Assembly (NCBI GenBank): GCA_035700025.1
Contig: DASSOY010000007.1
Location: 1,193-65,192 of the forward strand
Length of the DNA: 64,000 nt
Direction of reading: 5' to 3'
From: Bacillales bacterium
Lineage (GTDB): Bacteria; Bacillota; Bacilli; Bacillales; DASSOY01
Part shown: positions 26,057 through 31,268 of the stretch, in pieces
Layout of the letters: every line of letters starts with the position of its first letter
Numbering within the stretch: position 1 is the stretch's first letter
Notes under the pieces: generated by a model
Told to the model about the DNA's origin: nothing
The model's database searches: none
Seen by the model: the letters and a program-made list of their open reading frames with translations, nothing else
Translations under genes and position numbers: made by a program

Positions 26057-26089
26057 AAACAGCCCTTTGCGGGGCTGTTTTTTGTTTTT
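26057..26089 (+). terminator. Intrinsic terminator of the atp operon, abutting the stop of the convergent LuxR gene
   Basis: AAACAGCCC-TTTGCG-GGGCTGTTT followed by a T-rich run (TTTTTTGTTTTT). Confidence 0.8.
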
Positions 26090-27614
26090 AAATAAGGCCG
26101 TTTCTCACTGCCCGAACCGCTGCTTCCGTGCGGTTGCGGGCGTTCATTTTTTGCATGATTGTCGAAACGTAATCTCTCACCGTATATTCGCTTAAATGCA
26201 GGTGTTCCGCCGCCTCGGTCGTCGTGGCGCCGTCGGCCATCAGTTTTAAGACGTCGAGCTCTCGCTGTGAGAGCTGATAAGAGAAACTGGTCCGGGTTCG
26301 CTCCGGTTCGTCTCCTCCGTATTTTGTCAGCAATTCGCCGGCGCTTTGACCGAAGTGCATGAGCGCCATGAATGTTTCGCGCGGCATTTTGAACGACTTT
26401 TCCGGTCCTTGGTCCAAGACGACGGCCCCAATCAGCTTGTTTTCGGACGGTACGTACACGGGAGCGACCACGACCGTTTTCAGCTGAAACTTGCGAACGT
26501 ATTGCAATGGAAACGCTTCTTCCGCTGAAGGAATGTAGATCGGCTGCCAAAGTCTCATGTGATGGTCGTGCGGCAGGAGGTTTTTCAAGTTCTTTTCCAG
26601 CAACGGTACGTGTTCGATGGGGAGCTTGATGCGGCGAATTTCATCGGCATTGAGCTCGCAGCCGAACAAGCCGGATCCGGTACGGTCGTCGTCGGAATAG
26701 GCAAACAGCGCACACCTTTCAAACGGCAAGTAGTTGACAAACCCTTGCGTCACTTTTTCCAACGCTTCTCTCAGCGTTCCCGCCGGCATGATCCAATTGT
26801 TGAACAAGCGCACGGCGTCTTTCCATTGTTGCTTTTGCTGTGTAAACTGCCGCATCGACTCGCCGGCAGCGTGAATTTGCAACACGAACGTCAGAAAAGG
26901 AAGGAGAGATGCTGCATCTTGACCGGATGTGCCGATCAACAACGTTTCCTCTCTCCAGGGGACCGGCAAGACGTGTCTTTCTTTAGTTGACGAAGACGGG
27001 AACGCCGCTAAGAGCTTCTCGGACAACAAGAAAACCGACTCGGCTGCCAATGGGGTTTCCCGTCGGCACAACCCGTCCGGTCCGATGATCGCCGTCACTT
27101 CATAGCGGGAATGGCGTTGCTTTGCACGGGCCACCCAGTCGACGGGCAATTGCCGGGAGGAAACGAGCTGTTCCACTAGTCGGGTGATGTTCACTTGTTC
27201 GTGAAACGGGGTCGACAGAAGGAGTTCGCCGATTTGCCCAAATAAAAATTGCACTGCTTGGTGATTGCGGCGGGAGTCGGCGCCGGTATCGCCGGAAACC
27301 GCGCGGTGAACAGCATTTTCTAACATCGTGACGACAAAGATGACGTGATTCGGATGGAACCGGGCGTCAACGGTGCAGGCGCTTTCTTCCAATTTTATAA
27401 AAAAAACGTTTGCGTCTTCCGCAGGCTCGCTGAAAAAATGGTTCGCAAAAAAATCGATGCCCGTTTCCATCGCCGCCGCTGTTTTTCCTCCATGTTCCCG
27501 GACTTGCGCACGCATGGCTGCCCATTCATCCTCGATGAAATTTCGGTGGCTTCTGACCAAATCCAATCCGGTTTGCAAAACCGCTTTCAGCTGCCGATCC
27601 AAGGAAAGCGCCAT
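26088..27614 (-). CDS. One-component transcriptional regulator: unknown N-terminal domain, a GAF-like domain and a C-terminal LuxR/GerE HTH
   Basis: The C-terminus LSQRELDVLKLMADGATTTEAAEHLHLSEYTVRDYVSTIMQKMNARNRTEAAVRAV is a canonical LuxR-type HTH. The preceding ~150 aa (ALEKVTQGFVNYLPFERCALFAY...LIGAVVLDQ) look GAF-like. There is no receiver domain. Confidence 0.85.
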   Translation of the reverse strand: MALSLDRQLKAVLQTGLDLVRSHRNFIEDEWAAMRAQVREHGGKTAAAMETGIDFFANHFFSEPAEDANVFFIKLEESACTVDARFHPNHVIFVVTMLENAVHRAVSGDTGADSRRNHQAVQFLFGQIGELLLSTPFHEQVNITRLVEQLVSSRQLPVDWVARAKQRHSRYEVTAIIGPDGLCRRETPLAAESVFLLSEKLLAAFPSSSTKERHVLPVPWREETLLIGTSGQDAASLLPFLTFVLQIHAAGESMRQFTQQKQQWKDAVRLFNNWIMPAGTLREALEKVTQGFVNYLPFERCALFAYSDDDRTGSGLFGCELNADEIRRIKLPIEHVPLLEKNLKNLLPHDHHMRLWQPIYIPSAEEAFPLQYVRKFQLKTVVVAPVYVPSENKLIGAVVLDQGPEKSFKMPRETFMALMHFGQSAGELLTKYGGDEPERTRTSFSYQLSQRELDVLKLMADGATTTEAAEHLHLSEYTVRDYVSTIMQKMNARNRTEAAVRAVRNGLI

Positions 27615-27780
27615 GATCGAGCCGACTCCTTTCGTTTTTCCGATTTCTTCCTATTCAACAAATTTCGGACACAATGGTTCCTTTTACAGGGGTACGCCGC
27701 GAATTGCGGAAGCTCTTTTTCATCCGAACCAACCCTTCATTCGTCGGGAGGCGTCTGGCAAATCCCCACACGTCTCGGAA

Positions 27781-27819
27781 TTGTCGGAGGGCAAGACTGT
27801 GCATACAATTAAAATTGTA
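27781..27819 (+). promoter_or_regulatory. Candidate sigmaA promoter of the 3-gene operon, with a palindrome overlapping the -10
   Basis: TTGTCG (27781-27786), a 17-nt spacer, then TACAAT (27804-27809). The perfect inverted repeat TACAATT-AA-AATTGTA spans 27804-27819. Confidence 0.45.
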
Positions 27820-27863
27820 AGCGTTTTCCTATTCAAATTCGAACAATGCGGAGGGAGAAGAAC

Positions 27864-28469
27864 ATGAATGCAGTGCTCCGTCATGAACCTACGGAAGAAG
27901 CGTCTTGCATCGTTGCGGGACGTATCGTGAAAAAGAAGTTTTTCGCGGCGCTCCTTGCGGGATTTCTCATGCTCGGCGGCTTGGCGGCGGCTTTTGGTAT
28001 TTCCGGAGTCGCTTTTGCGATGCCGATCGGTGGAATCGGCAACTTTCACGTCGAATTCGATAAGCTTGTCGGCACGAATTTTAAATTTTTTCCGAAACTC
28101 GGCGAAACCGGCAACAAAGACAAAGCGCCGATGGTCCGCAACAAAATCGACGAAGCGACCGTTTACGGCTTGCACATTTACAAAAACATCACGTTGCCGG
28201 GCGGGAACGATATCCGCCTGAACATCACCGCCGACAAACCGGTGAAAATCAAAGGCCTCATTCAGGACGCCAGATTCATCGAAGGGAATTTCCAGTTCAA
28301 CGATTTGGCGATCGCCGAGCATAACACAGACGATTTCACGAAAGAGTTTACCCAGGAAGCGAGTCATCTCGTGATCAAAAACGCGAGCATCGTGACCGAC
28401 TATTTGTTTCAAAGCATGGTTACGTTGAATGGAACGAAAATATACGTCGAAGACATTCCCGACAAGTAA
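27864..28469 (+). CDS. Secreted or membrane-anchored protein of unknown function (from memory resembles actinobacterial DUF6230; unverified)
   Basis: ATG 27864 follows GGAGGGAG. The signal-peptide-like N-terminus is KKKFFAALLAGFLMLGGLAAAFGISGVAFA|MP, followed by a ~150-aa beta-rich domain (FHVEFDKLVGTNF...LVIKNASIVTDYLFQSMVTL). Confidence 0.75.
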   Translation: MNAVLRHEPTEEASCIVAGRIVKKKFFAALLAGFLMLGGLAAAFGISGVAFAMPIGGIGNFHVEFDKLVGTNFKFFPKLGETGNKDKAPMVRNKIDEATVYGLHIYKNITLPGGNDIRLNITADKPVKIKGLIQDARFIEGNFQFNDLAIAEHNTDDFTKEFTQEASHLVIKNASIVTDYLFQSMVTLNGTKIYVEDIPDK

Positions 28470-28508
28470 ACGCGAACGGTTCGGCAACCGGAACAAAGAG
28501 GTGAGAAG

Positions 28509-28979
28509 ATGGCGAAAATCGAGCAAAATGCCGCCAAAAAGACGGAAAAACAGCGAAAGCGGCGGGAGGATGTAATCCAGGCGGGTCCGTTCAAACGGTG
28601 GCGAAGCGAGCGGCCGTTTTGGGGAGCGACGTTAACGCTGCTTTCCGGGATCATGATTTTATACATTCCCGTACAATTGTACGCGATCGCTTTTGCTCCC
28701 GGGAGTTTTGCCTTTGTCGGATTGTTGTTCGGGGGATTGATCGTGATCATCGGCAGCATGGCTTATAGGTACCCGCCGTTTTCGACGGTGTTCGGCGTAG
28801 TGACGATTTTTCTTTCCGTGTTGTCGATCATGGGTGCGCTCGGCGGATTCGTCATTGGCACCATCATTGGCATCATCGGCGGCGCGTTGTGCATTGCTTG
28901 GCAGCCGGAAATGGTTTCGAGCGAAACAGAAATCAGCGCCGTACAAGAACAGCTTGAGGAACCCGGATTAGGAGAATAA
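28509..28979 (+). CDS. Small 4-TM membrane protein of unknown function (from memory resembles DUF6114; unverified)
   Basis: A basic cytoplasmic N-terminus (KKTEKQRKRRED) is followed by four hydrophobic, Gly-rich helices. RBS AAGAGGTGA. It lies 39 nt after the upstream gene. Confidence 0.75.
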   Translation: MAKIEQNAAKKTEKQRKRREDVIQAGPFKRWRSERPFWGATLTLLSGIMILYIPVQLYAIAFAPGSFAFVGLLFGGLIVIIGSMAYRYPPFSTVFGVVTIFLSVLSIMGALGGFVIGTIIGIIGGALCIAWQPEMVSSETEISAVQEQLEEPGLGE

Positions 28980-28981
28980 AA

Positions 28982-30445
28982 ATGAAGCCGTTCACACGGA
29001 CGATCAGACAACCGCATATGTGGCTGGCCGTTGTCGTCATGGCGTTTCTCGCCGTACCGATAGGCGGGCAAGATGCGGCAGCCGCGGGCGAATCGCCGCA
29101 TGGATTCGTCATCCATGCCAACCGGATTTCCGGCGACATGCTGCCCCCGACGATCGTCGTCAAAAACGGACGACCGTTGCTGCGGTTCCGTTATCGGTCG
29201 GCGGTCATCAGAGGGTTGTCGATGACGAAGCAATTGGCGACGCCGGAAGGGCCGATGACGGTAAAAGTGCACGCCGCTTCGGCAGAAGCGAAAAACATGA
29301 AGGTCGATGCTTCGGCGTTCACGTTCGGCGGGGCTTGCTTAACACTCGGCGAAGCGCGGCCGCAACTCGTGCTAAAGAACGTGACGATGGTTGCCCATTA
29401 TCAATCGGCGAGCCGCCTCCGGCTCGAGCAAGCAAAGATTGGCGCGGTTCCGGGAAGGCACGGGCTCGACCGGCCGTCCGCGCCTGACTGGTTGCAACAG
29501 TTGCAACAAACCAGTGCCGCTTCGTTGCGAGAGGCGATTGAAAAGCTGATGAACGGAAACGTGCCTTTGTTGCCGTGCAGCAGCGGGAAAGATGACGGGC
29601 AGAACAAGCAGACGTCGGTTGTTGGTAAGGGGATGCACGGCGATGAGGTCGATAAAGTCGAACAAACCGCGAAAACGATCGAACAAGCGGCTGCCGGAAC
29701 TGTCAATGGCGCGGTCGATGGTATCGTTGGCGGACAAACCGGAAAAGCTGTTGGCGGTTTGCTCGATGAGGCGGAAGCAGGGGAGTTGCCATCCTTGCCG
29801 GAAGACCTCGAGCAAACCGTATGCGACGGTGTCGAAGCGCTGAAGAAACGTTTGGGCGAACTCGAGAGTGCAATCGATGAGCTCGAAAAAACCGTCACCG
29901 CCGCGACGGCGAAAACGAATGACGAATTAACAGCGGTTGATCAATTAAAGAAGCGGTTGCAAGAAATTCATGGTGAAATCGAACCGCTTGTCGCCGCCGA
30001 GCCGGACCGGGAAAATTTTACACGGTTAAAGGAACAAGCGGAGGACTTGAAACGGCAAGAAGAAGAGCTGCGTCAGTTAAAGGGAGCGGCCAACGACCGA
30101 CGGCTGAAGCTGGAACAGCTTCAGGCGCGATTGAACAGCTTGCAACAGCAAGCCGCCGGCATCGACGTGCCGCCGGGCTGCTCGTCAGTTTCTGCGGACG
30201 AGGCAACGGATGCGCTCCGCCGTCTTCGCCAACAAACTGAAACGGGACGTGAGCTGCTCGATCGCCTTGGCCATCAAATCGAAACGAGCGAAGCGATCGT
30301 CAAGACGATCGTCCGTGAAGCAGAAACGTACCTGAAAGAAGCGCAGCAAGCATGGGAAAGCCGATTGCTCAGCGGAATAACGGACGCGCTTAGGAACTTG
30401 GCGAACGAAGTGGAAGATGTACTGACCGACATAAAGAAAGAATGA
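28982..30445 (+). CDS. Secreted protein: N-terminal domain paralogous to the 27864-28469 product, plus a long C-terminal coiled coil
   Basis: The ATG is 2 nt after the upstream stop, behind AGGAGAA. The signal peptide is MWLAVVVMAFLAVPIGGQDAAAA. The N-domain aligns with the first ORF in three collinear blocks. The C-terminal ~250 aa are heptad-like and E/K/Q/L-rich. Confidence 0.75.
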   Translation: MKPFTRTIRQPHMWLAVVVMAFLAVPIGGQDAAAAGESPHGFVIHANRISGDMLPPTIVVKNGRPLLRFRYRSAVIRGLSMTKQLATPEGPMTVKVHAASAEAKNMKVDASAFTFGGACLTLGEARPQLVLKNVTMVAHYQSASRLRLEQAKIGAVPGRHGLDRPSAPDWLQQLQQTSAASLREAIEKLMNGNVPLLPCSSGKDDGQNKQTSVVGKGMHGDEVDKVEQTAKTIEQAAAGTVNGAVDGIVGGQTGKAVGGLLDEAEAGELPSLPEDLEQTVCDGVEALKKRLGELESAIDELEKTVTAATAKTNDELTAVDQLKKRLQEIHGEIEPLVAAEPDRENFTRLKEQAEDLKRQEEELRQLKGAANDRRLKLEQLQARLNSLQQQAAGIDVPPGCSSVSADEATDALRRLRQQTETGRELLDRLGHQIETSEAIVKTIVREAETYLKEAQQAWESRLLSGITDALRNLANEVEDVLTDIKKE

Positions 30446-30469
30446 AACGCCTAGAACTAGAAGGCGTCT

Positions 30470-31268
30470 CAAAAGCGAATCTTTCTGATGCTCGGAAAGC
30501 GATGCCGCTCGTTAGCGGCATATCTACGCTTCTCATGTACGATTCACCCATTTGTCGGTGGCACCGACAATTTCCGATTGGTCGAACTGCTGGAATCGCT
30601 CATGAGAGACGCTATTTGGATGGATATCGCGATTTTTTACCGATTATCGCTCATAGAGAACGCTATTTTTTTAGAAACCCCGGAAATCGCATTGATTTCC
30701 GGGTGGTTTTTAGAAATAGCGCTTCTCATGAGCGTTTCTATTTAAAAACCGGGCATATTAGGAAAATAGCGAATCTGATGCACGTTTTTTAATATAGCAT
30801 GAGATTTTCGGTAAACCGAAAATTTCCGATTGGTAGAACTGCTGAAATCGCTCATGAGGAACGCTATTTGGATGGAAATCGCGATTTTTACCGATTATCG
30901 CTCATAGAGAACGCTATTTTTTAAGAAACCCCGGAAATCGCATCGATTTCCGTAAGGTTTTTGGAAATAGCGCTTCTCATGAGCGTTTCCATTTAAAAAC
31001 CGGGCATATTAAGAAAATAGCGAATCTGATGCACGTTTTTTAATATAACATGAGATTTTCGGTCAACCGAAAATTTCCGATTGATCGAACTGCTGAAATC
31101 GCTCATGAGAGACGCTATTTGGATCGAATTCGCGATTTTTACCGATTATCGCTCATAGAGAACGCTATTTTTTAAGAAACCCCGGAAATCGCATCGATTT
31201 CCGGGTGGTTTTTGGAAATAGCGAATCTGATGCACGATTTTAACAAAGCATGAGATTTTCGGAACCGA
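30470..31268. repeat. Tandem array of a structured ~251-bp intergenic repeat: partial unit, two full units, and one unit with an internal deletion
   Basis: The anchor TTTCCGATTG recurs at 30571, 30823 and 31074 (periods of 252 and 251 bp). Units share the hairpins ATTTTCGG-TAAA-CCGAAAAT and CCCGGAAATC-GCATT-GATTTCCGGG, plus four copies of a ~21-nt box (CGCTCATGAGAGACGCTATTT), two direct and two inverted. Confidence 0.88.

Follow-up and report, generated by a model that had tools for sequence, protein, structure and literature searches.

The window analysed here is a stretch of 64,000 nucleotides from a Bacillales bacterium (assembly GCA_035700025.1, contig DASSOY010000007.1), and the system in question is a set of three tightly packed genes on its forward strand, the open reading frames (ORFs) A, B and C at positions 27864-30445, whose originally predicted coordinates were all confirmed. 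It is close to certain that ORF A and ORF C are paralogs, which flank the gene of a protein with four transmembrane (TM) spans, and that the locus belongs to a recurrent module. This module, made of a regulator and three co-translated genes, is a widespread and barely studied module of the Gram-positive envelope, and the locus as a whole is probably best explained as an envelope module with a possible role in the handling of hydrophobic compounds. One feature cannot be seen in public annotation, a DUF6230-type domain concealed in the third gene: residues 41-157 of ORF C are a divergent, cysteine-containing form of the beta domain of ORF A. The hidden paralogy explains why domain databases relate just two of the three genes to known families, predicts that the two beta proteins act jointly, and defines the unit to be studied as the regulator, the 4-TM protein and two beta proteins, one of which has a helical tail. 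The module also draws attention to a beta fold that has no solved structure.

Homology of the first and third products

ORF A (27864-28469, forward strand, 201 amino acids (aa)) belongs to the small DUF6230 proteins resembling P16. Against the Pfam family DUF6230 (PF19741), where the gathering threshold is 27.5 bits, it scores 46.3 bits (E-value 7e-12), and the match extends over positions 4-139 of the 145 in the profile. ORF C (28982-30445, forward strand, 487 aa) is an exported protein composed of a signal peptide, a divergent DUF6230-type domain, a linker and a three-helix heptad region. It reaches 16.1 bits against the same profile (residues 42-114), which is below the threshold, and is not a DUF6230 member by the Pfam rule. 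A direct comparison of the two proteins with BLASTP is marginal (E = 0.073, 21% identity over 155 columns), and profiles were therefore needed. A first hhalign comparison with just three C-type sequences was weak (67% probability, E = 5e-5) and is superseded by a profile of 74 sequences. When the profile of the A family (42 sequences) was aligned with this C-type N-domain profile, the HHalign result was significant, with a probability of 98.3% and an E-value of 2.1e-14 over 130 columns, which bears out the original prediction that the first and third products share a homologous secreted domain. Removal of the signal peptides left the result at E = 3.2e-14 over 114 columns, and a hidden Markov model (HMM) of the C-type domain matched mature ORF A with E = 6.9e-13, the best of 340 shuffles reaching 0.09.

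The homology had been proposed from three collinear blocks, which the BLASTP alignment reproduces. Blocks 1 (FHVEFDKLVG in ORF A, FVIHANRISG in ORF C) and 2 (VYGLHIYK and IRGLSMTK) are aligned identically by all methods. Block 3 (LVIKNASIVTDY and LVLKNVTMVAHY) is backed by BLASTP, the shallow hhalign comparison, the global alignment and the predicted strand order, but its register is less certain, since in the deep profile alignments it is displaced by roughly one strand. Invariant or nearly invariant positions of the two families coincide at F61/F42, V63/I44, L68/I49, G70/G51, G102/G78, L103/L79 and K107/K83 (ORF A/ORF C), and ORF A carries one extra insert compared with ORF C (AIAEHNTDDFTKEFT). 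AlphaFold models of the two proteins, built from separate alignments, are both antiparallel beta meanders with long strands, and the order of the strands corresponds.

Intermediate sequences connect the two families. A set of 79 homologs of ORF A was collected for the small DUF6230 family, and 79 related loci were fetched from named genomes, the gene following DUF6114 being taken as the third gene of each; counts for Bacillales refer to 82 loci. The HMM of the small DUF6230 proteins directly matches 42 of the 82 third genes, down to E = 1e-14, and residues 1-180 of ORF C match 53 of 74 third genes, with E-values of 1e-22 to 1e-29 for the Neobacillus and Mesobacillus group. One third-gene protein (locus L015) is matched both by ORF A (5e-12) and by ORF C (6e-26). 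Two relatives of ORF C from Bacillales metagenome bins, P0002 and P0003, show sub-threshold DUF6230 matches in the same region (21.7 and 26.8 bits). A search with the third-gene profile among 1.84 billion representative proteins yielded only 146 matches, which include the Pfam-level DUF6230 proteins P0218 (55 bits) and P0224 (32 bits) with library-wide E-values of 3e-6 to 6e-4. Within the same range, the profile likewise matched P0075, a member of the small-DUF6230 alignment with a precomputed PF19741 hit. Only 14 of 38 third-gene proteins match PF19741 at E <= 0.01. Pfam annotation thus misses the second paralog, as ORF C and most third-gene proteins are either below the PF19741 threshold or unmatched.

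Six of the proteins matched in this search (P0184, P0187, P0189, P0190, P0193 and P0204) are stand-alone C-type domain proteins of approximately 175-212 aa. They have no Pfam match, and the C-type subfamily is therefore invisible to PF19741.

Domain structure of the three proteins

The signal peptide of ORF A (residues 1-52, 27864-28019, forward strand) ends in AFA, and the mature beta domain begins with MPIGGIGNFHVEFDKL. In the model, which was built from the small-family alignment and has a predicted local distance difference test (pLDDT) score of 82, a helix (23-47) is followed by an all-beta domain (61-198) with strands at 61-80, 88-101, 104-110, 116-123, 127-146, 149-152, 162-182, 185-187 and 191-198. 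ORF A is exported and very probably cleaved after AFA(52), leaving an all-beta domain of approximately 150 aa, and the small paralog is essentially the bare domain, as had been proposed.

ORF C was modelled from an alignment of third-gene proteins only. Its signal helix is followed by a beta domain at 42-157 (pLDDT mostly above 90) with strands at 42-61, 64-87, 90-114, 117-122, 127-142, 145-149 and 152-157, and by short helices within 169-190. The region homologous to mature ORF A, residues 41-157, is encoded at 29102-29452 (forward strand). The linker (residues 192-273, 29555-29800, forward strand) is acidic, rich in G, V and A (14, 8 and 8 of the 74 residues at 200-273) and predicted to be disordered, with pLDDT below 50 at 192-198 and 200-255. 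The helical region (residues 274-486, 29801-30439, forward strand) consists of three long helices at 274-338, 343-392 and 403-486 (65, 50 and 84 aa) with pLDDT values of about 80-85. Its heptad a/d contrast is 0.49, compared with 0.245 in shuffled sequences (z = 8.2), and there are many weak coiled-coil matches in the Pfam scan, in agreement with the earlier description of the large paralog as the domain plus a linker and a coiled coil. The monomer model resembles a three-helix bundle; its best Foldseek matches are three-helix bundles, none of them significant, and they were set aside as generic helical bundles.

Residues 1-40 of ORF C (28982-29100) keep the family motif VPIGG, to be compared with AFA-MPIGG in ORF A, and an 11-residue insert (QDAAAAGESPH) separates this motif from the start of the domain, GFVIH. 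The VPIGG signal region looks like a vestige of common ancestry with ORF A, and the cleavage site of ORF C has likely shifted to the AAAA run. A nearly invariant cysteine characterises the C-type domain (GAC motif, C119 of ORF C; third-gene alignments A4 and A5). In many members a second one follows the domain (LPLxC, C199 of ORF C), and four are present in the Virgibacillus group. Cysteine is absent from the mature A-type domain, which suggests that stabilisation by disulfides is confined to the C-type domain.

ORF B (28509-28979, forward strand, 156 aa) is a DUF6114 membrane protein. It matches Pfam DUF6114 (PF19609) with E = 6e-30, above the gathering threshold, and its gene adjoins the DUF6230 gene. 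Its sequence contains four hydrophobic spans, and the tails at both termini are charged; by the positive-inside rule, both tails would be cytoplasmic. In the class-level sample (loci L008-L014 and L032-L036) the DUF6114 proteins are very diverse beyond the 4-TM core: in one lineage they carry a charged, proline-rich N-terminal extension of 270-320 aa without a Pfam match, and in another several extra TM helices. In the closest relatives of the window operon (L006 and L037) DUF6114 carries a lysine-rich C-terminal tail of approximately 100 aa, which is absent from ORF B of the window.

Relation to P16 and P21 of Geobacillus

ORF A is related to P16 and P21 of Geobacillus thermoleovorans B23, two proteins induced by alkanes (C14-C34), more strongly with longer chains, and not by fatty acid, triacylglycerol or paraquat (Kato et al. 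2009, PMC2676291). Both were recovered in the insoluble/membrane fraction, with signal peptides of 45 and 38 aa removed, as monomers of 16 and 21 kDa on sodium dodecyl sulfate (SDS) gels, at levels visible by Coomassie staining (PMC2676291). The sequenced mature N-termini are VPISGVGEFxVTFDKL for P16 and AFPLSGVGGFTISADLI for P21 (PMC2676291). With the P16 N-terminus placed in register immediately behind AFA of ORF A, 10 of 15 positions are identical, and in other small DUF6230 proteins 12-13 of 15 agree; for the family, cleavage at AFA thus has experimental support. The mature motif of P16/P21, (V/A)(F)P(I/L)SGVG(E/G)F..., is present in ORF A, and ORF C keeps VPIGG only. An internal peptide of P16, ...GADNITIDNGN, fits the family consensus ...ITITDAK. 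The AlphaFold models of P16 and P21 have been described as all-beta, with a large beta barrel and an N-terminal helix, and the P21 ortholog GK2770 lies beside an R2lox alkane-oxidation cluster (Nithimethachoke et al. 2024, PMC10867098).

P16 and P21 (in G. kaustophilus HTA426, GK3040 and GK2770) are similar to ORF A in size (196-201 aa) and in having a cleaved signal peptide of 38-45 aa, and two mutually similar paralogs are found in one organism, as in the window. Both, however, are small and stand-alone and are encoded at two separate loci, whereas the second paralog of the window is fused to a linker and approximately 210 aa of helices and belongs to the same operon. The findings on induction by alkanes and on location in the membrane apply to the Geobacillus proteins. 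The group with long DUF6114 proteins (L008-L014) was considered as a source of Geobacillus P16 loci and rejected, as its DUF6230 proteins contain neither P16 nor P21 peptides.

Conservation of the module

The order small DUF6230 gene, DUF6114 gene and third gene is found in at least 74 of the 82 Bacillales loci, and the DUF6114 gene directly follows the small DUF6230 gene in 81 of them. In 61 of the 82, a homolog of the LuxR regulator is encoded no more than 6 kb from the operon. DUF6114 occurs in 31 of the 301 genomes sampled from the class, and in 20 of 29 class-level loci the DUF6114 gene has a DUF6230-type domain to either side, so that the flanking of a 4-TM gene by two paralogs, proposed for the window, is borne out. 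These 29 loci exclude the one of the window genome itself and form an unbiased sample, since they were fetched through DUF6114. The window locus is a typical member of the module and not an exception. Cultivable carriers include Neobacillus niacini, Mesobacillus subterraneus and Virgibacillus species, and Bacillus subtilis 168 is without the module. A literature search by the names DUF6230 and DUF6114 returned one incidental mention, of a moderately expressed Streptomyces gene.

Eleven loci (L038, L041, L047, L050, L051, L064, L065, L069, L070, L089 and L007), from Virgibacillus, Lentibacillus, Tuberibacillus, Caenibacillus and other genera, encode one DUF6230 paralog more, a protein of 257-286 aa that has an LPXTG wall anchor at its C-terminus and whose gene immediately precedes the small DUF6230 gene. 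In another six loci there is likewise an additional DUF6230 paralog, with no anchor detected, and a sortase gene lies within 6 kb in 8 loci. Neither the LPXTG paralog nor the sortase gene is present in the window. Because of the 11 loci with an LPXTG-anchored paralog, display at the surface is plausible.

Proposed function and alternative explanations

A function in handling very hydrophobic compounds at the envelope is the likeliest of those considered, at slightly less than even odds, and it is drawn from relatives such as the alkane-induced P16 and P21 and from gene neighbourhoods, not from the window locus. After export, both beta domains (of ORF A and ORF C) would be retained by ORF B on the outer face of the membrane, and the helical tail of ORF C would extend into or through the wall. 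The set could then bind or pass very hydrophobic molecules such as long-chain alkanes, lipids and sterol esters, or shield the membrane from them, with the GAF-LuxR regulator responding to a small ligand by switching the module on. Consistent with such a function, genes for SCP2, acyl-CoA ligase, thiolase, R2lox, alcohol dehydrogenase or aldehyde dehydrogenase are found within 6 kb in 28 of the 82 loci, including those of the close relatives L006 and L037. The helical tails of third-gene proteins also show sub-threshold matches to families that act on lipid surfaces, namely Apolipoprotein A1/A4/E in 7 of 38 proteins (best E = 4e-7), apoLp-III in 6, phasin in 4 and perilipin in 1, which may merely reflect the amphipathic nature of the helices.

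Several observations weigh against this function. The 28 loci with lipid-gene neighbours are from related genera and are not independent. In the window, no lipid or alkane gene adjoins the operon, which sits between atpC and nuoA, and no R2lox ortholog was found in the genome, the only hit being a 24%-identical protein of the ribonucleotide reductase (RNR) type. ORF C itself has no apolipoprotein-type match, and such matches are typical of any amphipathic helix. The comparison of the ORF A and ORF C folds is one of strand order and not a three-dimensional superposition, a sequence search of solved structures found no homolog of either protein, and Foldseek found no significant match in the PDB for either model; neither a binding cavity nor a channel can therefore be claimed. 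The best Foldseek matches of the ORF A model (MppR, PsbO and OmpA/OmpX-like barrels) have TM-scores of about 0.1-0.17 and were discarded as not significant. Disruption of the P16 and P21 genes failed in Geobacillus, so that there is no phenotype (PMC2676291), and the alkane induction in that organism could be a stress response.

An alternative is that the module serves envelope stress or solvent tolerance, being induced by membrane-disturbing compounds or detergents and coating or stabilising the outer face, with neither binding nor transport. It would agree with the dedicated regulator with its GAF sensor domain and with the presence of the module in the window without a linked catabolic gene. 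In Geobacillus the induction rises with chain length and coincides with degradation, transport was not shown, and tolerance is listed as an option by the authors (PMC2676291). The failure of fatty acids, triacylglycerols and paraquat to induce P16 and P21 nevertheless argues against a general membrane or oxidative stress, and the recurrent neighbours of beta-oxidation type fit the handling of a substrate better. We consider this explanation unlikely.

The original prediction had gone further in taking the two paralogs for the minor/major or base/stalk pair of a polymerising structure, for which no specific support was found. By analogy with tapA-sipW-tasA or with pilins, the small paralog would be the major subunit of a surface fibre, the large one its base or stalk, and ORF B the assembly platform. 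The presence in one operon of two paralogs, one of them with a long tail resembling a coiled coil, is compatible with this, as are the LPXTG-anchored third paralog of 11 loci, the sortase genes near 8 loci and the Coomassie-visible levels of P16 and P21. However, neither the C-terminus of ORF A (...YVEDIPDK) nor that of ORF C (...TDIKKE) carries an LPXTG signal, on which ground a sortase pilus was rejected, and neither protein matches a TasA/camelysin or pilin family. ORF B has no similarity to peptidases or sortases in the Pfam/NCBIfam scan, the monomer model of ORF A is a compact domain without a free donor strand, and P16 and P21 behave as membrane-fraction proteins that run as monomers on SDS gels, not as fibres. 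The tapA-sipW-tasA operon of Bacillus subtilis is similar in that two exported proteins flank the gene of a membrane protein, and a database record labels the DUF6230 relative P0042 as "SipW-cognate class signal peptide". The window differs from it in lacking homology to TasA/camelysin and in a middle gene that does not code for a signal peptidase. No Pfam or NCBIfam match at E <= 1 to TasA/camelysin (Peptidase_M73) or SipW was obtained for ORF A, B or C, the NCBIfam scan of ORF A gave no SipW-cognate signal match, and a TasA-SipW system was rejected since its defining domains are missing from all three proteins. A fibre or polymer is thus quite unlikely.

A more specific form of the hydrophobic-compound function, in which the DUF6230-type domains and DUF6114 build a hetero-oligomeric conduit, the helices of ORF C span the peptidoglycan as a stalk or tube, and long-chain alkanes, sterol esters and other very hydrophobic molecules are carried between the outside and the membrane, is likewise quite improbable. 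If true, such a conduit would be the monoderm functional counterpart of AlkL/FadL or of Mce-type systems, built on a beta fold without a solved relative. For the uptake of very hydrophobic substrates such as long-chain alkanes across the thick Gram-positive wall, P16 and P21 are among the few candidate proteins. MCE systems move lipids or sterols across the envelope, and MCE bridges (Mce, PqiB and LetB) offer an architectural analogy with ORF C in the succession of an export/anchor helix, a seven-strand beta domain and a long helical region. The analogy stops there, as the strands of ORF C are much longer (20-25 residues) and the window operon encodes neither a permease nor an ATPase. Membership in the MCE group was rejected in the absence of any MlaD/MCE family match and of Foldseek matches to MCE structures.

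It is most improbable that the proteins are secreted lipolytic enzymes, as the historical label "cholesterol esterase" of Streptomyces DUF6230 relatives would have it: this lead is traceable solely to a statement of Kato et al., who noted that P16 and P21 are similar at the N-terminus to the cloned cholesterol esterase of Streptomyces lavendulae but found this similarity negligible over the full length and discarded the assignment (PMC2676291). In the mature A family neither a GxSxG motif nor, among the invariant residues, a Ser/His/Asp set is conserved, and the Pfam scan gave no hydrolase family match.

Regulator, expression signals and genomic context

The regulator (26088-27614, reverse strand, 508 aa) is a GAF-LuxR/GerE protein transcribed divergently from the operon (Pfam GerE, E = 2e-17; GAF, E = 5e-6). 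In the spacer 5' of ORF A lies a sigma-70-like promoter candidate, TTGTCG-17-TACAAT (27781-27809, forward strand), which is a match to the consensus only and the sole promoter-like site within 27500-30800. The best start of ORF A is the ATG at 27864, with a ribosome-binding site (GGAGGG) 8-13 nucleotides upstream. A gap of 39 nucleotides separates ORF A from ORF B, the start of which is preceded by AGAGGTGA. ORF C starts 2 nucleotides past the stop of ORF B, with an AGGAG within the end of ORF B. Between the ORF C stop and a repeat array (30470-31268) there is no canonical terminator; a short hairpin (ACGCCT...AGGCGT, within 30446-30480) directly follows the stop, without a T-tract. The block of regulator and operon is flanked by atpD/atpC and nuoA/B/C.

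The operon is the single DUF6230/DUF6114 locus of its genome. Other weak matches to these families, in contigs C11 and C75, are spurious and correspond to an unrelated operon and a TRAP-transporter gene. Among the related loci, L083 (JAGGQZ010000017.1), titled Chryseobacterium sp. ISL-80, is near-identical to that of Mesobacillus thioparans (L082), and the assembly is probably mislabelled or contaminated.

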